DNA of 64,000 bases from Chamaesiphon sp. Its GTDB lineage: Bacteria > Cyanobacteriota > Cyanobacteriia > Cyanobacteriales > Chamaesiphonaceae. The stretch lies in contig CBDFFH010000009.1 of the NCBI GenBank assembly GCA_965246715.1, positions 64,001-128,000 on the forward strand, written 5' to 3'. The notes under the pieces were generated by a model. The model worked only from the letters and a program-made list of their open reading frames with translations. It had not been told where the DNA came from and made no database searches. This document shows positions 11,262 through 52,637 of this stretch, one piece after another (position 1 is the stretch's first letter; every line of letters begins with the position of its first letter). A program made the position numbers and the translations under genes.

Positions 11262-11271
11262 GATTTGGTAG

Positions 11272-11665
11272 TGGAGCTGGGCAGAGTCGAACTGCCGTCC
11301 GCCCTGGGTATTAACTTTCCGCTCATTCACAGGTATAGTCTATCTAATCCTCAAGACGGGAGTGACCAATTATCCCAGGTCGCAGGATGCTCTGATGAAT
11401 CTTAGCTAAATAATCTACCAGAGACGATTATTTAGAGCATCCGTTGAGGGTTATCTATAGTACTTAACGGAGTCGTACTATAAATGCTCGGACTTAGAAA
11501 TTAATCTTAAGTGTTTTTAGGCAGCTACAGGAGCGGCTTTACGAGCGAAAGGTACAATGTTGTTTGCATCTATATTTAGTTGAGCCGATATTAACGAGAG
11601 TGGACTCCCTCTCGACCTGTATCACAGTGCAGCGTTCGCCAACACGTCGAAACCTTTACAGCCCC
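11272..11665 (-). ncRNA. ssrA: tmRNA
   Basis: 5' GGGGCTGTAAAGGTTTCGAC, 3' GTTCGACTCTGCCCAGCTCCA; tag ORF 11567-11517 encodes ANNIVPFARKAAPVAA*. Confidence 0.97.
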
Positions 11666-28214: not shown

Positions 28215-29725
28215 CAGGTTAAACGCACTTAAATTTGTTATTACTAAAAACTTTGACGATCGAATGAATAAATAGCATCTAGAAATCTTGTAATTACTGC
28301 TAGGTAATAGTTAGAGCTAATTAACTATGTTAGAATTTAACAAATTTAATTTAACTAAAATGAAGCTGAAGCCAAAATATAGTATTATAGAACACTTCGA
28401 GAGTGTAGAAGACTACAGGACAGAGCGCGGGAAAAAGCATAAATTAATTGATATCATCACCATTACCATTTGTGCTGTAGTATCTGGAGCTGATACATGG
28501 ATAGATATAGAAATTTATGGTTTGGCGAAGAAGGAATGGCTAGGTAAATTTTTAGAGTTGCCGCATGGTATTCCATCACATGATACATTTGGAAGGGTAT
28601 TTTCACGAATTAATCCTGAAGAATTTCAAAAAAGTTTCCTGAGTTGGGTTAAAGGAATATCTAAAATAACAGCAGGAGAAATAATTGCACTTGACGGCAA
28701 ACAATCTCGAAATTCAGGAGATAATACTAATGGACAAGGTGTACTAAATACTGTTAGTGCATGGGCTGTAACTAATAGATTAGTATTAGGACAGAAAATG
28801 GTTGAGGGCAAATCTAATGAAATCACAGCACTTCCTGAATTAATTAAAGTTCTAGATTTAGCCGGATGTATAGTTACCATTGATGCAATGGGATGTCAAA
28901 GAGAAATAGTAAAAAAAATTGTTGAAAAAGATGCAGATTATGTAATTGCTGTGAAAAAGAATCAACCAAGTTTATACGACCAAGTAGAAAGGCTATTTAA
29001 ACAGGCTATTGCAACTGGTGGCGCAGGTTTCAATCTGAGTGATTTCAGGACTAAGGAGATTAATGGGGGTAGGGAAGAAATCCGTAATTATTTAATGATA
29101 TCAGATGTTGCCGATCGAATAGATTCATCCCATAACTGGATGAAATTGACTAGTATTGCGATGGTTGAATCAGTAAGAACTATTGGGGATAAAACCACCA
29201 TAGAGACTCGTTATTTTATTAGTAGTTTAGCTAATAATGCCAAGAGAGTCGCCGGAGCAATTAGAGGTCATTGGGGGATAGAAAATTCACTTCATTGGGT
29301 ACTTGATGTTTCTTTAAGAGAAGATTATAGTCGAATTAGGAAAGATAATGCGCCAGCTAATTTTGCAGTATTACGGCACATAGCTATTAACTTAATTAGT
29401 CAAAATAAAAGTCGGAAATTAAGTGTGAAAAGCAAGAGATTTCTAGCAGGTATAGATGACAAATACTTGGCTGAAATTTTAGAAGGTATTTTATAATTTA
29501 CGAACTATTGGTTGAAATCAAATTACTTCTATAATATATCGACGATTTAAGTTATTCCTTCGATCGACTACTTTATATTGCATTAAATTAAATAAATATT
29601 GCCTTATACTATACATCAGTTCTAATTGAATTCGTCGTAAATGTATTTAGTTCATAAATACTGCTTAAGTTGTATGTATTATTGAATTCGATCGCCTCAT
29701 ATCAAGTTTTGATGCGTTTAACCTG
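28215..29725 (+). mobile_element. ISAs1-family IS (second subtype)
   Basis: IRs CAGGTTAAACGCA; 10-bp TSD ACAACACCCC (28205-28214, 29726-29735). Confidence 0.93.
28360..29496 (+). CDS. ISAs1 transposase
   Basis: PSHDTFGRVF, IALDGK, KSNEITA, TIDAMGCQ, HWGIENSLHW. Confidence 0.93.
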   Translation: MKLKPKYSIIEHFESVEDYRTERGKKHKLIDIITITICAVVSGADTWIDIEIYGLAKKEWLGKFLELPHGIPSHDTFGRVFSRINPEEFQKSFLSWVKGISKITAGEIIALDGKQSRNSGDNTNGQGVLNTVSAWAVTNRLVLGQKMVEGKSNEITALPELIKVLDLAGCIVTIDAMGCQREIVKKIVEKDADYVIAVKKNQPSLYDQVERLFKQAIATGGAGFNLSDFRTKEINGGREEIRNYLMISDVADRIDSSHNWMKLTSIAMVESVRTIGDKTTIETRYFISSLANNAKRVAGAIRGHWGIENSLHWVLDVSLREDYSRIRKDNAPANFAVLRHIAINLISQNKSRKLSVKSKRFLAGIDDKYLAEILEGIL

Positions 29726-29944
29726 ACAACACCCCTAACCTAGTTTTGAATTTAGAACCAAAGCTCAAACTTTGGACGGTGGCTGAATACCACCGGATGA
29801 GTGCGTTGGGAATGCTCGATGCTGATGGAAGAACCGAACTAATGGCTGGGGAAATTTTACTAATGGCTGCGAAAGGAACTCCCCACGTTGTTGGATTACA
29901 ATTATTAGCAATTTCTCTGTCCGAACAACTGCAAGATAGTGATT

Positions 29945-31170
29945 GGGAGCATCCCACTTTTTATTAGTTTTATGTAGATAAAGCGTATGTACTAGTATGG
30001 CGATCGAGAAATCTGGTGAAAATAGCAGCAGAGGGAGCATAATCTTGAGATAATGGGGTCAAGTAAACTAAGGTAGTGTAATGAGTCCAGAAGAGCAAAA
30101 AGAACTCGATCGACACACAAAAGCTATTGCCAAAATATTGTATAAAAATACACCAAAAGAAGAACTAACAAGCTTAGGAAAAATCGAAGAAGCGGTGAGA
30201 GCGAGAATGCAAGAGTATGTGATGCCATCCGTCGGAATTTTTTTATCGAAAATGTCACAGTCGAAACTGGAGGATATAAAAGACAGATCCAAAGCATAAT
30301 TGGAGAATTAGCAATCACAAGCAAACAGGCAGCCAAGCTAAATATCAAAAGTCATACCCAAATCAGTCCGTATTTGGAAGCTTGTTGCTTGCGTATAAGT
30401 GCATCAATTTCTTACGAAAGGACAACAGAGGAAGTCAAATATTTAACTGGAGTGGAGATATCAAAAAGTGCCCAACAGAGGTTAATTCACAGACAAGAAT
30501 TTGAATTGCCTCAAGCTGAGACACCCGTGGCAGAATTGAGTGTAGATGGGGGGAATATTCGAGTGAGAACCCCAAAGGGAGAGGTGTGTAGCTGGAAAGG
30601 ATACAAAGCAACAGTACTACATCAACAGCAAAAAATTGCATCATCATTTCAAGAAAATGAGACGATCGTTAATTGGGTAAATAGTCAAGAATTAGCTCCA
30701 GTTGTTACTTGCTTAGGTGATGGCCATGACGGGGTATGGAATATCATCAAGGAATTTGTACCTATTGGTGAAAGAAGAGAAATTCTCGACTGGTTTCATT
30801 TGATGGAAAATCTCCATAAAATTGGCGGTTCCAACCAAAGATTATTTGCAGCCAGAGAATTACTCTGGTACGGAAAAGTTGATGAGACGATTAAGTTGTT
30901 TGGTGATTGTAATCTCAAGCAAGCTGAAAACTTTTGTGCTTATTTAGAGAAACATCGTCATCGGATAATTAATTATTATTATTTTCAAGCCGAACAAATC
31001 TGCTCTATTGGTTCTGGTTCCATTGAGTCTACAATTAAACAGATCGATCGCCGGACTAAAATTTCTGGAGCGCAGTGGAAATCTGAAAATGTTCCTCAAG
31101 TATTAGCGCATCGCTGCGCCTACCTCAACGGGTTAATTTGCGACCGCTAAATAAAAAGTGGGATGCTCCC
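29945..31170 (+). mobile_element. ISKra4-family IS
   Basis: Perfect 21-bp IRs GGGAGCATCCCACTTTTTATT; no target duplication. Confidence 0.88.
30081..31150 (+). CDS. ISKra4 transposase, two ORFs joined by a -1 frameshift at T7 (about 30238-30244)
   Basis: SVDGG, CLGDGHDGVWN, LDWFHLMENL, IGSGSIES; -1 frame open from the T-run to 31150. Confidence 0.8.
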
Positions 31171-31423
31171 AACGAAAAGCTTGTCGCGCCAATTCCCCAA
31201 CAGCATAATAACGATCGTCGATTCCTACAACACAGTATTTAGCCGGATCGACTTTAAATGCACTACGATACTTCTCGATCGCATCTGCTGAAACCTCGAT
31301 TACTTCTGGACTCATGGTGAAATAGTGAGGATTTTCAGATTTAGGATGTTCGTTAATTTCTTTGGTAAAAGCTACTTTTAATGACGAACTCCCGTAATCT
31401 ATAACGGCATACAGATATTCCAT
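31171..31423 (-). pseudogene. ParM/StbA actin-like segregation ATPase, N-terminal fragment cut by ISKra4
   Basis: Phosphate-1 motif VIDYGSSSLK and YAVGELA; ORF runs into the IS IR. Confidence 0.7.
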
Positions 31424-32191: not shown

Positions 32192-33481
32192 ATGCTGACA
32201 GCAAAAAATTGTCAAGCTAGTACGGCGGTGCAGTATTTCACTGACGATTACGATCGAGGGCAGACGCGATGGTTTGGGAAAGGTGCTGCCAAACTGGGAT
32301 TAGTCGGTGAAATCGATTGCGCTGGGCGCAGGCTTCGCCAACGAGAATCATTCGAGCATATTTGCTACGGTCGATCGCCAGATGGGACTAAATATCTGGG
32401 TACTAAAGGCGACCCTGACAAACGCCGTGCGGGAACGGATTTTACATTTTCCGCCCCGAAATCTGTGAGTCTAACTGCATTAGTCGGCGGGGATACCCGC
32501 TTAGAAGTCGCCCATCGCATCGCCGTCGAGAAAACTCTGGCACTAATCGAATCACGCTACGCACAAACCCGTATTACCAAAGATAAGAAAGTAGCAGAAG
32601 TCAAAACTGGAAGCCTCGTCGTAGCTCAGTTCGACCATATTGAGAGTCGCGAACTCGATCCGCACCTGCATACTCACGCCCTGGTTTTGAACCTAACTCA
32701 AGCAGAGAGCGGTAAATGGTATGCCAACGACAACGATCTAATTTTTCAGAACAAGAAACACTTGGGTACGATTTATCAGGCTTACCTAGCAGCCGAAGTC
32801 GATCGACTGGGTTATGAGATCGAGCCTCGTCCCCACGGGATGTTTGAGATTAAAGGTTACAAGCGGGAGAATTTAGTCGAGTTTAGCAAACGCCGGATGC
32901 AGATTCTCGCTCAGTGTCCAAGTAATAGCACTTGGCAGACGCGGGAGGATAGTTGGGAACGCACTCGCAAGCATAAAGAACGCATCCCCTCAACTGAGTT
33001 AAAAGCACGATGGCAGCGGGAAGCTAGCGATTTAGGCATTGAAATCGTCAAAGCTGGAGTGCTGCCAGTTGCCCAGTCGATTCGGCAGAGCCGACGCTTC
33101 GCGAACGATTCAGAAAAAACGGAACGGTTCATCAACGATGCGATCGCTCATTGCTCCGAGCGGAGCGTTGACTTTAGAGTTGAAGACATTGAGAAATTCA
33201 TAATCGCCCAACGATTGCCGCTCGATATTGCTGAGATTAAATCTCTGTGCGACACTCGATCGGATTTAATTAAGATCGATCGGCACTACACCACTTTGAA
33301 GGCACCAATACAAGATGAAGTTGACGACCGGATACAGGTTGAGCCGTTGCTAGATAATGTACATGAAAGCGAAGCTGAATTAGCTCGGCAAGAAGGTGTC
33401 AAGGTGCCTACTCATGGTGGCGGTGTGAGGGTTCCAGTATCTAGGGAAGATAAGCTTGACACTACTCTCGTTCGATCATAA
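32192..33481 (+). CDS. MobF/TrwC-family relaxase (relaxase domain only)
   Basis: N-terminal Y(F)..DY, W.GKGA, DFTFSAPKSVS, H..SRELDPHLHTH, EFSKRR. Confidence 0.92.
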   Translation: MLTAKNCQASTAVQYFTDDYDRGQTRWFGKGAAKLGLVGEIDCAGRRLRQRESFEHICYGRSPDGTKYLGTKGDPDKRRAGTDFTFSAPKSVSLTALVGGDTRLEVAHRIAVEKTLALIESRYAQTRITKDKKVAEVKTGSLVVAQFDHIESRELDPHLHTHALVLNLTQAESGKWYANDNDLIFQNKKHLGTIYQAYLAAEVDRLGYEIEPRPHGMFEIKGYKRENLVEFSKRRMQILAQCPSNSTWQTREDSWERTRKHKERIPSTELKARWQREASDLGIEIVKAGVLPVAQSIRQSRRFANDSEKTERFINDAIAHCSERSVDFRVEDIEKFIIAQRLPLDIAEIKSLCDTRSDLIKIDRHYTTLKAPIQDEVDDRIQVEPLLDNVHESEAELARQEGVKVPTHGGGVRVPVSREDKLDTTLVRS

Positions 33482-33625
33482 CCGAGCTAGCGAATTTGCT
33501 ACTTCATTGAGTGAGCTTGCAATTGATATCTGGTATCGGTCGATCGAAGTCGATCGATCGAAATGATTGAGGAAATTTGAGAGATCTAGAACGAGGGGGA
33601 GAAGATCGTGCATCGGATGAAATAG

Positions 33626-34213
33626 TTACCCCTCCTCTAAATACCTCAGAGCGGCGACCTTCACCCAGTCAGACCAACTACCATCATCTAGCTCGACTAT
33701 TGCCTTTGTGCGACCTCGATGCCACTGCCCTAATCTGCCCCGCTCGCCCGTAGCGACAATTTCGACCCGTTGGCCTAGCCTCAGCTTTGCTGAATCGCCG
33801 AGCCTTAACTCTCTTGTAGTTAATGGTGGTGGCAGTGGTCTAATACTGCCGAGCGTATCCAGATCCTCAAACCTAATCCAGCTAGTCACCCGTCCGTCAG
33901 TTTTGAGACAAGCATAGCCATCGCCGTACTTGGAGATCTCCCAGATTTCTAGTACTCCTGCATATTGCCGCTGGAGGTTGGGATTTGTGCCGATGTACGT
34001 GACGCGATTGCCTAGCTGGAATTGGGCGATTCCGCCAAGCGGAGGCTTCGCCAACGGCTTGGGTGGTTCGACACTCAGAACCCGATCTATAGAAGTTTTT
34101 CTTTGACCGCTGGGGGTTTCGATGGTAATGGTATCACCATCGATCGCTAGCACTTTGCACCCTACCCCAGCCAACCCGTAAACAACCGATCCGAGCGTTA
34201 CCTTAGAATTCAT
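33626..34213 (-). CDS. Hypothetical protein with repeated small beta-barrel (SH3/KOW-like) modules
   Basis: Three LG..V.. modules; overlaps the rep stop, suggesting translational coupling. Confidence 0.65.
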   Translation of the reverse strand: MNSKVTLGSVVYGLAGVGCKVLAIDGDTITIETPSGQRKTSIDRVLSVEPPKPLAKPPLGGIAQFQLGNRVTYIGTNPNLQRQYAGVLEIWEISKYGDGYACLKTDGRVTSWIRFEDLDTLGSIRPLPPPLTTRELRLGDSAKLRLGQRVEIVATGERGRLGQWHRGRTKAIVELDDGSWSDWVKVAALRYLEEG

Positions 34214-36938
34214 CTTCGGTAGCCTCTGGGATGTCGTCTAAATTAGAAACTTTTTCTGGCTGCTTAGACAATGGCAATTTTTTATCGTCTGTATCGTCTG
34301 TATCGTCTGCCGAATCCTGAAACCTTTGTTGTAACTGGCTTTGATGGCAGACGATATCGTCTTTGGGTATCGTCTGCTTATCGTCTGCCTTTATAATACC
34401 GTCCGCTATATCGTCTGTATTATCGGCTGCTTTTACAGGTATCGTCTGCTGATCGTCTGCCTTAAAACCTTTATCCTGAAAAGGTTCTGGTGTCATGGCA
34501 GACGATGCAGACGATACAGACGATATTTTTACGACTTTCTCTATGCAGATAAGTCGCGTACATTCTTTTCCTGCTCGGAAATACCCAACTTCGATCCCTA
34601 ATGCCTTGAGATCGGGAGCCAATCGAGTTAGTTGACGGCTGAGGCTGTTGGAAGCCTTTGGGAAATATCGCGATCGATAGGTGGCTTCGTCGGTATGCTG
34701 TTCTAATTCATTCAGCAGTTGCGAAGCTGTGCCCTTCCAAACTAGGGGGGTGTTCTCCATCAGTTGGATAATTGCCTCACCTACAGGCGACGACTCGATT
34801 ACCACCTGGCGAGATTCTTCGCGGCTCTGGCTGAAGGCTTCCATAAACTCACCCTTTCTCAATCCCAAGGCTTTCTCACTGGCAATCGCAAACTTGGCAT
34901 AGTCAGCCATCCGAGGCAGTTTATCTGGCTTGATATCGGGTAACGCTGCTAAGGTTTGACTCAATGCCGTCAACAGTGCCCCTAGGATACGCGGACGCGC
35001 CGCTTCAACTTTGGCCGTTAATTCGGCTTGGGGTAGTCGTTTTTCTTCAGTTATTTCACCCAGTTGTACCATCAGGACTCGATCGGCTAAGTCATCGCGA
35101 GTCACTAAAGAATCGATCGCCGTGATAATCTGGGGACGAGCAAACTCAAAGGTAGTTTCTTCGTCAGTGCTAAATAAAGTGCGGGTACTGTAGCCGAATC
35201 CCGTTGCAATCCGACACAGATCGTCCGATTGGTCGGCACTAATATGTCCTACATTATCGTAAACCATCAATAGCCGACGGGAAGCCGCAACCGCGAGCTT
35301 ATGGGTATCCCCTTGCAGCTTAATGAGTGGTGCTTTCCCAGGATCGATCAGACCTTTGAGCATTTCTGCGGCAACGGTTTTGCCGCTCCCTCTGTGCGCC
35401 GATAGTACTAATACTGGATAGGTCTTATTCGGACAGAAGCAGAATAATAGGAATGTGATAGTGAGAACCCATGCCGAGTCATTGACATTTAGCAAGTCTC
35501 TCAATTCTGTTAAGCTTCCCCCTACAACGGGATCGGGGAGCGGACGCAGTGAATCCGGTCGCCAAAATCGCACGGGTGGATCTACGATCGTCCGCCAGCC
35601 AGTAGGATCGATCTCGATCGCTTTCCAGTCTGGAGTACCCAAGTCGAGATAAATTTTCTCTTGGTGTTGGGCGATACGGAGATGAACTTCGCGAGTCTGT
35701 GAATCCTGCCCGTACAGAGCGATAGCTTCGAGGGTTGAAAGCGTATCTTGCATCGTTTGAGAACCAATTCCTTTCCCCTCGACATTAAAATACATCCCAG
35801 CCAGCCACATCCTAAAAGCTCTGGAGCGGACGGCATAAGTGTGACAGTTGCCAGCAATCGTGATATCGGCATAAGCAATGCGATCGGGTGTTTGGAAGTA
35901 AGTAGCCGTTCTACCGATCTCCAGCAACCGCTCTGCAACTGACTTGAGTGGCTTTTTTCCACTAGAGGCTTCATCATCTATTGCCGCTGTCTCAAACGGT
36001 TTTGCACTATCGATAACTTGATGGAATGCTTCGACTCCACAGTTAAAGATTAAGTCGTCGATACCTTTACCTCGATTGCTACTCCAATCGGTCAAATACA
36101 CTTGAGAATCTGCTGCCATTAATAAACCAGCAAATCTTTTAATGGCAGCACGAACCATATTTATCGTTTTAGGTTTGCTGTCCTTGTCAAATGCAATAGT
36201 TATCCTTCTGTTAGGGGTAGAAATTAACTGTAAATCGTTAATTAACGTATAGTCTTTTTCGCCTTTATTTAGTTCGGGACAGCCATTCCAAACCCCAGTT
36301 AACGAGATACAAATTTCCCCAGTACTAATCCCGCTTAATGCTTTTTTTGCTCCTTCAGTGATGGTTACAGGGATTCTTGAATCTTCCCCAATCCATTTTA
36401 AAAACTCTAGGCTGAGTCGTTGGCATTCATTTCGCCATTCATCCGAGCCGATATCTGCTAATTGCCATTGCCTAGTAACTAAATCGGTGGGTAAATCTAC
36501 TCTTACACGCACTGATATCGCTTGCCATGTTTCCAGATCGATTATCGGCAGGAATGCCTTGCAAGGCTTTTTCGTTGGATGCTCGTATTTAATCGCTTTG
36601 CCTTCTTTGTCTAGTCGCGGTTGGAGCGGTTTGAAACTAGTACAGCTAGCAATACGTTGGCGGAGCCTATCGGAACGATAATCGCGTTCGATATCGATGC
36701 CAGTATAGGATGTACCACCATGCTCGACGATCGAGGCGTATGTATCCCGATATCCCTTCTTTAACGTCCCGTTGTTATTATGGATTTTCACTTCCCCTAA
36801 TAGTTCGCTAATTGCTTTATCACCGTTGAGAAACTCAGCATTGAGCAAACACAATCGGGGATCGATCGCACTAGCGTAGAATTCTTCAATGACACTTTCG
36901 GGGAAGTATTCGGTCAGAATAGAGTAGTCATAATTCAT
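34203..36938 (-). CDS. Primase-helicase replication protein (DUF3854 TOPRIM-like plus NTPase)
   Basis: IKYEHP, ITEGAKKA, IAFDKD, GKGIDDLI; Walker A AHRGSGKT, YDN, RTLFS, DLADR. Confidence 0.85.
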   Translation of the reverse strand: MNYDYSILTEYFPESVIEEFYASAIDPRLCLLNAEFLNGDKAISELLGEVKIHNNNGTLKKGYRDTYASIVEHGGTSYTGIDIERDYRSDRLRQRIASCTSFKPLQPRLDKEGKAIKYEHPTKKPCKAFLPIIDLETWQAISVRVRVDLPTDLVTRQWQLADIGSDEWRNECQRLSLEFLKWIGEDSRIPVTITEGAKKALSGISTGEICISLTGVWNGCPELNKGEKDYTLINDLQLISTPNRRITIAFDKDSKPKTINMVRAAIKRFAGLLMAADSQVYLTDWSSNRGKGIDDLIFNCGVEAFHQVIDSAKPFETAAIDDEASSGKKPLKSVAERLLEIGRTATYFQTPDRIAYADITIAGNCHTYAVRSRAFRMWLAGMYFNVEGKGIGSQTMQDTLSTLEAIALYGQDSQTREVHLRIAQHQEKIYLDLGTPDWKAIEIDPTGWRTIVDPPVRFWRPDSLRPLPDPVVGGSLTELRDLLNVNDSAWVLTITFLLFCFCPNKTYPVLVLSAHRGSGKTVAAEMLKGLIDPGKAPLIKLQGDTHKLAVAASRRLLMVYDNVGHISADQSDDLCRIATGFGYSTRTLFSTDEETTFEFARPQIITAIDSLVTRDDLADRVLMVQLGEITEEKRLPQAELTAKVEAARPRILGALLTALSQTLAALPDIKPDKLPRMADYAKFAIASEKALGLRKGEFMEAFSQSREESRQVVIESSPVGEAIIQLMENTPLVWKGTASQLLNELEQHTDEATYRSRYFPKASNSLSRQLTRLAPDLKALGIEVGYFRAGKECTRLICIEKVVKISSVSSASSAMTPEPFQDKGFKADDQQTIPVKAADNTDDIADGIIKADDKQTIPKDDIVCHQSQLQQRFQDSADDTDDTDDKKLPLSKQPEKVSNLDDIPEATEDEF
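34284..34524. repeat. ATCGTCTG octamer iteron array inside the rep 3' end (candidate origin)
   Basis: 8 direct and 4 inverted exact copies plus variants in 240 bp. Confidence 0.75.
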
Positions 36939-38021: not shown

Positions 38022-39152
38022 TTAAGTAATTTCGATTGCCCCAATATCTACAAACAAACATTCACTGCCGATCGCATGAGCATAGGTAGACAGTAGAACG
38101 CGCTTATCATGTCCTGTCTGTTCTGCCAACGCGATCGGGTTAGCTCCTTGAGCTAAGGCATGGGAAGTGGCTGAATGTCTCAAGTTGTAGGGCTTTCGGT
38201 ATTCGATCTGGCAACTGACTAAAATAGTTTTCCAAGCTCGATTACAAAAATTGTGGTCATCGATCGCGACACCCTTGGGACTAGGAAAGACTAGATCGTC
38301 TGGTTGAGGTTTAATCCGTTCGTACCGATTTACCAACATGCTTTTAATTACTGGGTTTAGCTGAATAGTTCTTGCCTTACCCGTTTTCGTGTCTTTCTGA
38401 TTCCTGCGGCTGATAGATTCACCGATCCAAGCGGTCGTATAATCCGCTCCTAAATGCTTCCATCTCAAGCCAACAGCCTCACCAATTCTGCAAGCTGTGT
38501 TCGTCAGGAAGATTACAAACTCAGTGTAATGAGAGTATTGGGGATGGCTGCCAAATCCACTAATAATTGCTTGAAGTTCGGCAATAGTGAATGGTTTAGG
38601 ATGTTGCTGGGGATAGACTTTAACCCGATCGATACAGTTTTCCCACGGGTTAGAGCCTTCTGCTAAGTGGTATTTACCCTTTGCCCATTCCCAGCAAGCC
38701 CGAATCAGGAATAAATAGGTTTTAACTGTTTGTCCTGAGAGGCTCCCTCCCATCATCGCTACAGCATTTTTCGCAATCGACTCGGAGACTTGGTGAGCGG
38801 GTTTATCCATTAGACATTCTCGCAGCTTGGACGCGATCGCTTTATATCGGTGCATCGATCCAGGGGCTAACCCCTTATCCTTGATGATGAACGCTGTGTA
38901 CTTTTCAAATAGTTCTACAGCGGTTAATTCAGTGGGATTAGCCCCAAGCTTGCGCGATCGGTACTTTAGCCGTGTAGGGTCGTAATGACCAGAGATCAGA
39001 TCCATTGAGATCTCTGACATCTTTTTAGCTGCGAAAGCCCTGCCAACGGGAGTATCGGTAACTCCTAGAGATAAACCTTGCTTTTTACCTTCGTAGTTCC
39101 ATCTCAGTCTGAGGGTATTGCCTGTCTTCTCAATCCAAATTTTTTCGTTCAT
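38022..39152 (-). CDS. Tyrosine recombinase/integrase with N-terminal arm-binding domain
   Basis: LRLRW N-terminus; ACRIGE, TKTGK, YNLRHS, TGH, TYAH catalytic residues. Confidence 0.93.
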   Translation of the reverse strand: MNEKIWIEKTGNTLRLRWNYEGKKQGLSLGVTDTPVGRAFAAKKMSEISMDLISGHYDPTRLKYRSRKLGANPTELTAVELFEKYTAFIIKDKGLAPGSMHRYKAIASKLRECLMDKPAHQVSESIAKNAVAMMGGSLSGQTVKTYLFLIRACWEWAKGKYHLAEGSNPWENCIDRVKVYPQQHPKPFTIAELQAIISGFGSHPQYSHYTEFVIFLTNTACRIGEAVGLRWKHLGADYTTAWIGESISRRNQKDTKTGKARTIQLNPVIKSMLVNRYERIKPQPDDLVFPSPKGVAIDDHNFCNRAWKTILVSCQIEYRKPYNLRHSATSHALAQGANPIALAEQTGHDKRVLLSTYAHAIGSECLFVDIGAIEIT

Positions 39153-39294: not shown

Positions 39295-39366
39295 AGCCTG
39301 TGATGAGGATTGAACTCATGACCTCTTCATTACCAATGAAGTGCTCTACCACTGAGCTACACGGGC
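39295..39366 (-). tRNA. trnT: tRNA-Thr(GGT)
   Basis: GCCCGTGTAGCTCAGTGGTAGAGC...CTTCA-TTGGTAA-TGAAG...GTTCAATC. Confidence 0.95.
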
Positions 39367-51502: not shown

Positions 51503-51524
51503 TATTTTCCCTAGCACGATCGAT

Positions 51525-52530
51525 ATCCGCGCTGAAATGGAATTTCGCGCTCATAGCTAAAGTTATCTGAAGATAACTACACAGATCTCTAGAGTTCGTG
51601 TCAACGAACTTATGCTCTCAGCCCCAAATTCATTTGAGGGCTTGGATCTATGCTAAATTCTAGCAGTTATTAGCGAGATCGACTGCAATGGGACATGCCC
51701 ACGATCGCCTTATCCAAATCCAATTTCAAATAATTTGTTAACATTCGATCGAATCTTGGGCATATTAACAAACGAAATGCCAATATTTTATACATGCCGC
51801 TTTGGAGATTATTCTATCATCTGGCTTGGGCGACTAAAGATCGACAACCACTAATTAGCCCACACCACGAACGAATCCTCTATCCACATATTCAAGGAAA
51901 AGCTGATTTTCTCGAATGTCAATTACATGCGATCGGTGGTATCGAAGACCATATTCATCTCATTGTTTCAATCCCACCTAAGCTATCTATTTCAGATTTT
52001 GCCAAACGGATTAAAGGTAGTAGTTGCCGTTATTTAAACCAAGAGATTGCAGAAGATAGCTATGTATTTGCATGGCAACATGAATATGCGGTGTTTTCGT
52101 TGGGCGAACAAAGATTAGAATGGGCGATCGCATATGTTGAAAATCAAAAACAACATCATGCAGCCGAAAAGCTAGTCAAAGTACTAGAACAAACAGAGCC
52201 AAGTTGAGGGGTATTAGTGGGATGCGACATCCGCGCTGAAATGGAATTTCGCGCTCACAGCCAAAGTCATCTGAAGATAACTACGCAGATCTCTTAGTTC
52301 GTTTCAACGAACTTACGCTCTTAGCCCCGAATTCATTCGAGGGCTTAGATCTCCACTAAATTCTATCGGCTATTAGTGGGATGCGACATCCGCGCTGAAA
52401 TGGAATTTCGCGCTCATAGCCAAAGTTATCTGAAGATAACTACACAGATCTCTTAGTTCGTGTCAACGAACTTACGCTCTCAGCCCCAAATTCATTTGAG
52501 GGCTTGGATCTCCACTAAATTCTAGAGACT
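51525..52530. repeat. Three copies of a multi-hairpin repeat flanking tnpA
   Basis: Copies start at 51525, 52229 and 52388 (159-bp tandem period). Confidence 0.9.
51794..52207 (+). CDS. tnpA: IS200/IS605-type Y1 HUH transposase, no tnpB
   Basis: YHLAWATK.R, DHIHL (HUH), IKGSS, WQ..Y..FS, YVENQ. Confidence 0.9.
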   Translation: MPLWRLFYHLAWATKDRQPLISPHHERILYPHIQGKADFLECQLHAIGGIEDHIHLIVSIPPKLSISDFAKRIKGSSCRYLNQEIAEDSYVFAWQHEYAVFSLGEQRLEWAIAYVENQKQHHAAEKLVKVLEQTEPS

Positions 52531-52637
52531 ATTGGCGCGATCGCCAACCAATTCGATAGCATTTCGCCCCCAACAGGGCAGAATAACTCCAGCATCTAAA
52601 ATAATAATTAGGCTCAATCCAAAATCCAACATCCAAA

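Follow-up and report, generated by a model that had tools for sequence, protein, structure and literature searches.

Small dispersed repeats (SDRs) of cyanobacteria are the closest described relatives of the inserts reported here. The abstract of Elhai et al. 2008 is said to describe an SDR4, SDR5 and SDR6 class that forms two hairpins kept by compensatory changes, and to our knowledge no mechanism for the SDR5-type repeats has come to light since then. SDR5 is placed between nucleotides 3 and 4 of highly iterated palindrome 1 (HIP1) (PMC4390886), is 21 nucleotides (nt) long (PMC13756078), and, according to PMC5861425, has no known SDR-like counterpart outside the Nostocaceae. We analyzed a 64,000-nt stretch of a Chamaesiphon genome, hereafter called the window, to which all positions refer unless another contig is named. 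It includes a mobilisable element that carries five different 24-nt inserts, each of which folds as two small hairpins and splits a CGATCG hexamer, the HIP1 core, at the bond CGAT^CG.

These inserts resemble SDR5 in that they interrupt the same HIP1 bond (GCGAT^CGC on the other strand), create no duplication and carry two small hairpins. The two-hairpin fold with compensatory changes, a feature of the SDR4, SDR5 and SDR6 class, is likewise present in Chamaesiphon. Three reported features of SDR5 are nevertheless missing. The inserts are 24 nt long (also 22, 23 and 25 nt) with a first stem of 4-5 bp, their target is the hexamer CGATCG rather than an octamer, and they are abundant in a genus outside the Nostocaceae, contrary to what PMC5861425 states. 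Kinship to a HIP1-targeting repeat of Nostoc, which an earlier note on this DNA had put forward, was confirmed in two Nostoc genomes, where a 21-nt form dominates the HIP1-splitting inserts (130 matches in one and 85 in the other, against 0 and 1 in the control). The Nostoc inserts use the same bond and have the same 3′ hairpin and two-hairpin layout, with a 2-nt tail and TNC loops, and the 24-nt form is found in Nostoc too (eight copies in one genome, four of them directly after CGAT). Because the bond and the 3′ hairpin are shared, we regard the Chamaesiphon inserts as a variant of the known SDR5 kind, and their identity as SDR5-type mobile inserts is highly probable. The 24-nt form is set apart from SDR5 by description; it may correspond to SDR4 or SDR6, and Elhai et al. 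2008 may already list it. No paper on such inserts in Chamaesiphon, or naming an enzyme for them, was found in a literature search whose coverage excluded most subscription journals.

A second point of comparison is provided by the ends of IS200/IS605 elements and by REP/REPIN sequences. Here too there are small hairpins, a fixed tetranucleotide beside the insertion, structure kept over sequence, and hundreds of non-autonomous copies (PMC6006769, PMC8266576, PMC3733652, PMC3116915). The Chamaesiphon inserts differ from these in being far shorter, in lacking a GTAG/GTGG foot and an adjacent cognate tnpA, in showing no detected lagging-strand bias, in being common within open reading frames (ORFs), and in using a host palindrome as target.

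A structure-defined insert family at one bond of CGATCG

The earlier note had proposed, from the five window copies, a structure-defined family of micro-insertions that targets the HIP1 core. The fold, the single bond, the empty sites and the covariation all support this proposal. The five inserts lie exactly at the coordinates, on the strands and with the sequences that were claimed (Table 1), and CGATCG without duplication is left when each is removed in silico. Genome-wide, the strict geometry (CGAT, a 5-bp stem with a 3-nt loop, a 3-bp stem with a 3-nt loop, AA, CG) occurs 97 times in 6.12 Mb, as compared with no match in each of five block-shuffled genomes, none in the reversed genome and 0.01 expected analytically. 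Insertion is precise, in that all 97 strict copies lie at CGAT^CG and none was found at the four other cuts of the hexamer; column counts likewise place CGAT before the hairpins and AACG after them. When no flank is required, 160 matches to the fold are present in the whole genome. HIP-flanked copies total 207 and fall into four length classes (129 of 24 nt, 59 of 22 nt, 11 of 25 nt and 8 of 23 nt).

The compensatory changes asserted in the earlier note were evident when stem 1 was not imposed on the search. Under this condition, 91 of 127 copies are perfectly paired in stem 1, and 46 of 79 distinct stem-1 arms pair perfectly, versus a mean of 4.5 (maximum 11) after arms are shuffled between copies. 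The fold is therefore conserved over variable sequence, with 92 distinct sequences among 115 24-mers. Identical 24-mers nonetheless recur in unrelated flanks, one of them five times in at least four such settings. The zero controls, the covariation and these identical copies at unrelated sites rule out chance or assembly artefact as the origin of the pattern.

The genome holds 28,367 CGATCG sites and its top octamer is TCGATCGA, a HIP signature of the type reported for Chamaesiphon and Geminocystis (PMC4390886). Insert flanks carry G on the left in 82 of 207 copies and C on the right in 36 of 207, so the octamer GCGATCGC of SDR5 is not required; the 3′ flank of the target is biased to A and against T. 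Sister families are also present; they have the 3′ hairpin in common, and their first stem begins with the T of the target itself, with net insertions of 21 and 24 nt at T^CG. Genome-wide, many copies are nested within one another's loops in either orientation.

The five window inserts are in frame and, as the earlier note had expected, homologs have gaps of about eight residues at all five sites. Inserts 1 and 5 correspond to gaps of 8 amino acids (aa) relative to homologs and insert 3 to an exact 8-aa gap relative to a paralog in the same genome, whereas the 8-aa gap at insert 4 rests on one homolog of 52% identity, the insert itself being common to the in-genome paralog. Insert 2 is shared with the in-genome paralog and with the relative G020, the remaining homologs being 8 aa shorter and diverged at the junction; the identical 24-mer also lies at an unrelated site of the same genome. 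At the nucleotide level, 13 of the 15 loci homologous to site 1 are empty (6 CGATCG, 6 CGAGCG, 1 CGATCC), and the two filled loci, which belong to other haplotypes, contain this same insert, altered at a single position in one of them. Site 5 is empty at eight of nine homologous loci (1 CGATCG, 2 CGATTG, 5 more distant) and filled at one. For site 3 the in-genome paralog was the single homolog found; it is empty, with CGAG^CG at the junction. No clean empty allele at nucleotide level was found among the loci homologous to sites 2 and 4.

Recent presence/absence polymorphism is apparent from a relative, G011, that is 97% identical to the window genome (G000) in housekeeping DNA and of which 2.39 Mb of ~5.1 Mb was compared. 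A spanning G011 match exists for 66 of the 207 G000 copies, comprising 18 empty sites, 22 filled, 3 other and 23 dropped where flank identity was below 90%. Reciprocally, a G000 match exists for 42 of 102 G011 copies; 10 of these sites are empty, 20 were scored as filled, 1 is other and 11 were dropped. Contigs from sequencing runs gave no listed joint that skips exactly 24 nt, which counts neither for nor against recent movement. There are 27 unique clean empty sites between the two genomes, a set that is unpolarised for gain versus loss, having no outgroup, and in which some partners are paralogs rather than orthologs. One site in a MenD-like gene (G000:C14:14976 versus L226) is filled in both genomes. 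Its hairpin 1 differs at three positions between flanks that are 99.5% identical, a difference for which replacement, re-insertion and hairpin hypermutation are alternative explanations.

Distribution among lineages, genes and mobile DNA

The pattern was found in 24 of 24 genomes of the genus at 25-172 copies each (control 0), whereas 16 other families have 0-3 copies. Because all the genus genomes searched carry inserts, passage through another host, which the earlier note had offered as one explanation, is not needed. Named matches to the pattern (n=119, from a scan of 2 of the 64 parts of the collection) include 51 from Chamaesiphon, with others from Moorena, Phormidesmis and Leptolyngbya, among further names; the share of Chamaesiphon, with the HIP signature above, points to this genus as the source of the window. 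A slightly wider pattern is matched in 53 of 401 genomes of the phylum. The general form (20-25 nt) is matched in 104 of 151 genomes of the order, with at least 15 copies in 28; controls gave 0-2, so that low genome counts are close to noise. Related inserts extend to many families besides the Nostocaceae. Length classes are lineage-specific at the same CGAT^CG bond. Matches outside the cyanobacteria, with 1-3 of 5 pairs, were taken as chance, as were seven viral-contig matches considered for phage carriage, none of which has a perfect first stem.

The five inserts in the window preserve reading frame, but this is no general feature of the system: forms of 22, 23 and 25 nt also occur, and they are nearly absent from ORFs. 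By crude ORF calls, 64 of 129 24-mers lie within ORFs as opposed to 4 of 78 copies of other lengths (p=3e-12), the figure for intact CGATCG being 72%. Length is thus under selection in ORFs, and the dominance of 24-mers there indicates that in-frame copies are survivors; a design for frame preservation is ruled out by the non-triplet lengths and their avoidance of ORFs. ORF copies are sense in 36 cases and antisense in 28, with no bias. One 647-aa ORF with type II/IV secretion ATPase and GrpE domains (L293, G000:C55:171299-173242) also carries a 24-nt insert.

The earlier note had also suggested comparing insert density per CGATCG between mobile and core DNA. Accessory or mobile DNA is strongly enriched, but the inserts are not confined to mobile elements. 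Density per CGATCG is strongly uneven among contigs (chi-square p=4e-29). Among 96 matches in G011, 27 lie on two small contigs, probably plasmids judging by their size alone (74 per Mb), and 69 on the 4.75-Mb main contig (14.5 per Mb). No insert occupies any of 839 sites in G000 DNA syntenic with ten G011 tiles that were picked irrespective of inserts. Of 68 ORF-hosted cases, 40 were scanned, and these were chiefly from accessory families or without a match, together with MenD-like, MsrB and TamB genes; these three hosts and the main-contig copies of G011 rule out a restriction to mobile elements. The enrichment on mobile DNA probably reflects relaxed selection, combined with the greater exposure of DNA that is single-stranded or has newly arrived.

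Within the window, 5 of 39 CGATCG sites are filled in the element (31.1-39.3 kb), whereas none is among the 229 sites of the two flanking stretches, 1-28 kb and 39.3-64 kb (Fisher p=5e-5, with 28-31.1 kb left out). Because its integrase lies beside tRNA-Thr and it encodes a relaxase and a Rep protein, we regard the host as an integrative mobilisable element; no attachment site was located, in that no repeat of at least 12 nt from tRNA-Thr was found. The DUF3854 protein probably acts in replication. The 195-aa ORF had been labeled SH3-like in the earlier note, a label that finds no Pfam support.

Table 1. Inserts, host genes and other annotated features of the 64,000-nt window
Feature	Position	Strand	Details
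Insert 1	32318..32341	+	TGCGC-TGG-GCGCA-GGC-TTC-GCC-AA; CGAT^CG in relaxase gene; adds CAGRRLRQ
Insert 2	33082..33105	+	TCGGC-AGA-GCCGA-CGC-TTC-GCG-AA; relaxase linker region
Insert 3	33770..33793	-	TCAGC-AAA-GCTGA-GGC-TAG-GCC-AA; 195-aa ORF
Insert 4	34031..34054	+	TCCGC-CAA-GCGGA-GGC-TTC-GCC-AA; antisense in 195-aa ORF
Insert 5	36657..36680	-	TATCG-TTC-CGATA-GGC-TCC-GCC-AA; Rep/primase gene
MobF/TrwC relaxase, 429 aa	32192..33481	+	carries inserts 1 and 2; PF08751 E=2e-83; NF041492 MobF
195-aa ORF	33626..34213	-	carries inserts 3 and 4; no Pfam match
Empty near-HIP site CAAT^CG	34005..34010	-	in the paralogous element, occupied by a nested same-family insert of 102 nt, in frame
DUF3854 replication/primase-type protein, 911 aa	34203..36938	-	carries insert 5; PF12965 E=5e-37
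Tyrosine integrase	38022..39152	-	PF00589; beside tRNA-Thr
tRNA-Thr	39295-39366		tRNA search
TnpA(Y1) subclass 1.2, candidate mobiliser only	51794..52207	+	DHIH / WQ / YVENQKQHH motifs; motif table in PMC6006769

A second copy of the element lies on the same contig (L028, G000:C9:8188-16200). It is 87-93% identical and mosaic, with inserts 2, 4 and 5 present and 1 and 3 absent. The relaxase ORF consists of the TrwC domain and a short tail only, and similarity to its paralog ends near 33435. The 3′ end of the Rep gene (34280-34526) contains 9-nt tandem repeats and a pair of 29-nt inverted repeats. Two transposase regions lie at the left edge of the element (28327-31150). The second is multi-copy, with near-identical sequence at ~10 further places, and adjoins a 96-aa ORF (31133-31423). 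Elsewhere in the window, a transfer-messenger RNA gene lies on the minus strand at 11271-11665.

Routes of insertion and a candidate enzyme

We lean slightly toward the reading, mechanism included, that these are non-autonomous, non-coding SDR5-type micro-insertions and that a strand-transferase supplied in trans likely moves them as folded single-stranded DNA. On this view one strand of the insert, in folded form, would be copied into new positions, and the enzyme acting on it would most plausibly be of the HUH/Y1 type. The inserts lie beside a conserved tetranucleotide without duplication, as IS200/IS605-type elements do, and this fits the chemistry of those elements (PMC6006769). Exposure during a single-stranded phase, as the earlier note had suggested, is plausible.

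The loops provide a lead that favors a single-stranded DNA route. When the searches left the loop letters unconstrained, 83 of 97 strict 24-mers had C-GNA-G, with a free middle base, as the minus-strand sequence of loop 2, and 53 of 55 22-mers had GNA in loop 1. Loop 2 with its closing pairs matches the mini-hairpin DNA d(GCGNAGC), whose RNA counterpart (in tetraloop form) is much less stable (PMC13037366). As known natural uses this review lists priming sites of phages and plasmids together with the N4 promoter, rather than mobile inserts, and the motif may well have a functional role in the inserts. Single stem mismatches show no excess of G.U-type wobbles on either strand (14 versus 16). 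Neighbors within 10 kb share orientation in 58 cases versus 39 (p=0.07). A reading of the plus-strand loops as UNCG RNA tetraloops was rejected because the stems register as triloops.

A candidate for such an enzyme in the window is encoded by a tnpA of Y1 subclass 1.2. The earlier note had suggested that inserts might co-occur with HUH nucleases. Subclass-1.2 homologs are indeed present in 19 of 28 insert-rich versus 14 of 79 insert-poor genomes, but the association is weak within families. Three copies in all of a multi-hairpin repeat border the tnpA gene (51794-52207) on its two sides (~51523-51650 and 52227-52545), and a related repeat subfamily has ~90-115 dispersed genome copies with compensatory changes. 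Since subclass 1.2 generally lacks typical IS200 terminal structures (PMC6006769), these flanking repeats may be cognate repeats of the subclass that have yet to be described. Among non-HIP targets of the inserts, the main one to recur is a single arm of a repeat whose multi-hairpin build resembles theirs, in which 26 of 62 copies are filled and one junction base is rewritten; filled copies number 3 of 94 in a second such repeat family and 0 of 118 among GTAG-type REPs. The repeats beside tnpA in 12 genus loci are unfilled. In a relative, a subclass-1.2 tnpA (L316, G042:C303) carries an in-frame 24-nt insert at CGAT^CG just before the HuH motif. A subclass-2.4-like RAYT was rejected as mobiliser, as it shows no association (14 of 28 versus 39 of 79).

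Several observations weigh against movement as single-stranded DNA by such an enzyme. No enzyme, intermediate or autonomous element was found. The subclass-1.2 link lies mostly between families (rho 0.61; within-family p=0.17, close homologs p=0.045), nine insert-rich genomes have no subclass-1.2 match with the query used, and a match is present in 17 of 27 genus genomes and absent from 10. None of the six Y1 genes in the genome is flanked by the insert as its own repeat; they carry other repeats, and the only inserts nearby occur singly, including two at CGAT^CG. No more than three events, multiplied as the repeat was amplified, may lie behind the 26 filled repeat copies. Folding energies prefer neither strand, nor do the five window copies outdo shuffled sequences in folding (z -1.5 to +0.5). 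IS200/IS605 elements favor the lagging strand, and the 69 copies on the G011 main contig show no replichore bias (best split 61%, permutation p=0.54) in a test that presumes a circular contig and symmetric replichores with the origin position not mapped. Finally, the loop conservation could reflect a protein that reads the plus strand, or partly descent.

A less probable alternative is that the inserts are a by-product of a host pathway that creates and maintains HIP sites, wherein an existing CGAT-[insert]-CG strand occasionally templates the nick-directed conversion of a near-miss to CGATCG. Inserts would then land where HIP sites arise, above all on newly arrived DNA. The statement in the earlier note that deletion restores CGATCG is true in silico, but the real empty allele is often a near-miss. 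Only 16 of the 27 empty sites read CGATCG, versus 23.9 expected from identity-matched background conservation (p=1e-4); background conservation of the hexamer is 84-95% (76% in the lowest bin) and is similar in ORFs, non-coding DNA and small contigs. An earlier, smaller set gave 16 of 24. The other 11 sites are near-misses, of which ~3 were expected, a roughly 3.5-fold excess. These are CGATTG/CAATCG in six cases, CGAGCG/CGCTCG in four and a double mismatch in one, and the first two classes are among the three commonest background variant classes. This excess hints that insertion accompanies HIP creation. The target, moreover, is the hexamer over-represented in this genome rather than the Nostoc octamer, a methyl-directed repair ratchet has been proposed for HIP creation (PMC4390886), and two 5-methylcytosine methyltransferase genes are present. 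Set against this are the unpolarised gain and loss and the paralogs among the empty partners, the entry of inserts into non-HIP sites and into one another, and selection on the hairpin fold, which templated repair alone leaves unexplained. Divergence directly beside the empty sites is also higher than further out (7.0% versus 5.7%), so that local divergence may contribute to the near-miss excess. The by-product explanation is not mutually exclusive with every other reading.

A related and slightly more doubtful possibility is that the inserts are footprints of HIP-building itself. Phylum-wide DNA mini-hairpins of 21-25 nt would be handled by the subclass-1.2 TnpA(Y1) and pasted preferentially into near-miss or new CGATCG sites, leaving perfect HIP halves.

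Movement through an RNA intermediate with a borrowed reverse transcriptase, reportedly proposed for SDR elements by Elhai et al. in 2008, is improbable here. Short structured elements that insert precisely at a nick do resemble target-primed reverse transcription, and the genome contains many reverse transcriptase genes (22 matches). Nevertheless, there is no preference for G.U wobbles, no orientation bias relative to host genes and no target duplication, the loops fit a DNA mini-hairpin, and no Rfam match other than two tRNAs was found in 30-54 kb. The remaining explanation, that a few old insertions without ongoing mobility were spread by homologous recombination and horizontal transfer while hairpin-promoted template switching perfected their stems, could account for the same site-1 insert in three flanking haplotypes and for the altered hairpin 1 at the shared MenD-like site, but it is very improbable because it is largely refuted by identical inserts in unrelated flanks, and the 27 precise presence/absence differences between genomes that are 97% alike, the diversity of the 24-mers and the lineage-specific length classes at one bond also stand against it.

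Chamaesiphon thus provides hundreds of copies per genome and precise filled/empty pairs between close relatives, in a family whose hexamer target follows the host's own HIP variant and whose 24-nt class adds 8-residue loops to proteins such as the relaxase, Rep and a MenD-like enzyme. Three testable leads emerge. One is the DNA mini-hairpin signature, another the near-miss excess, which may connect insertion with the creation of HIP sites, and the third a subclass of candidate enzymes. If the inserts do prove to be footprints of HIP-building, the origin of HIP1 would be linked with the smallest mobile DNA known, and there would be a named enzyme to test.

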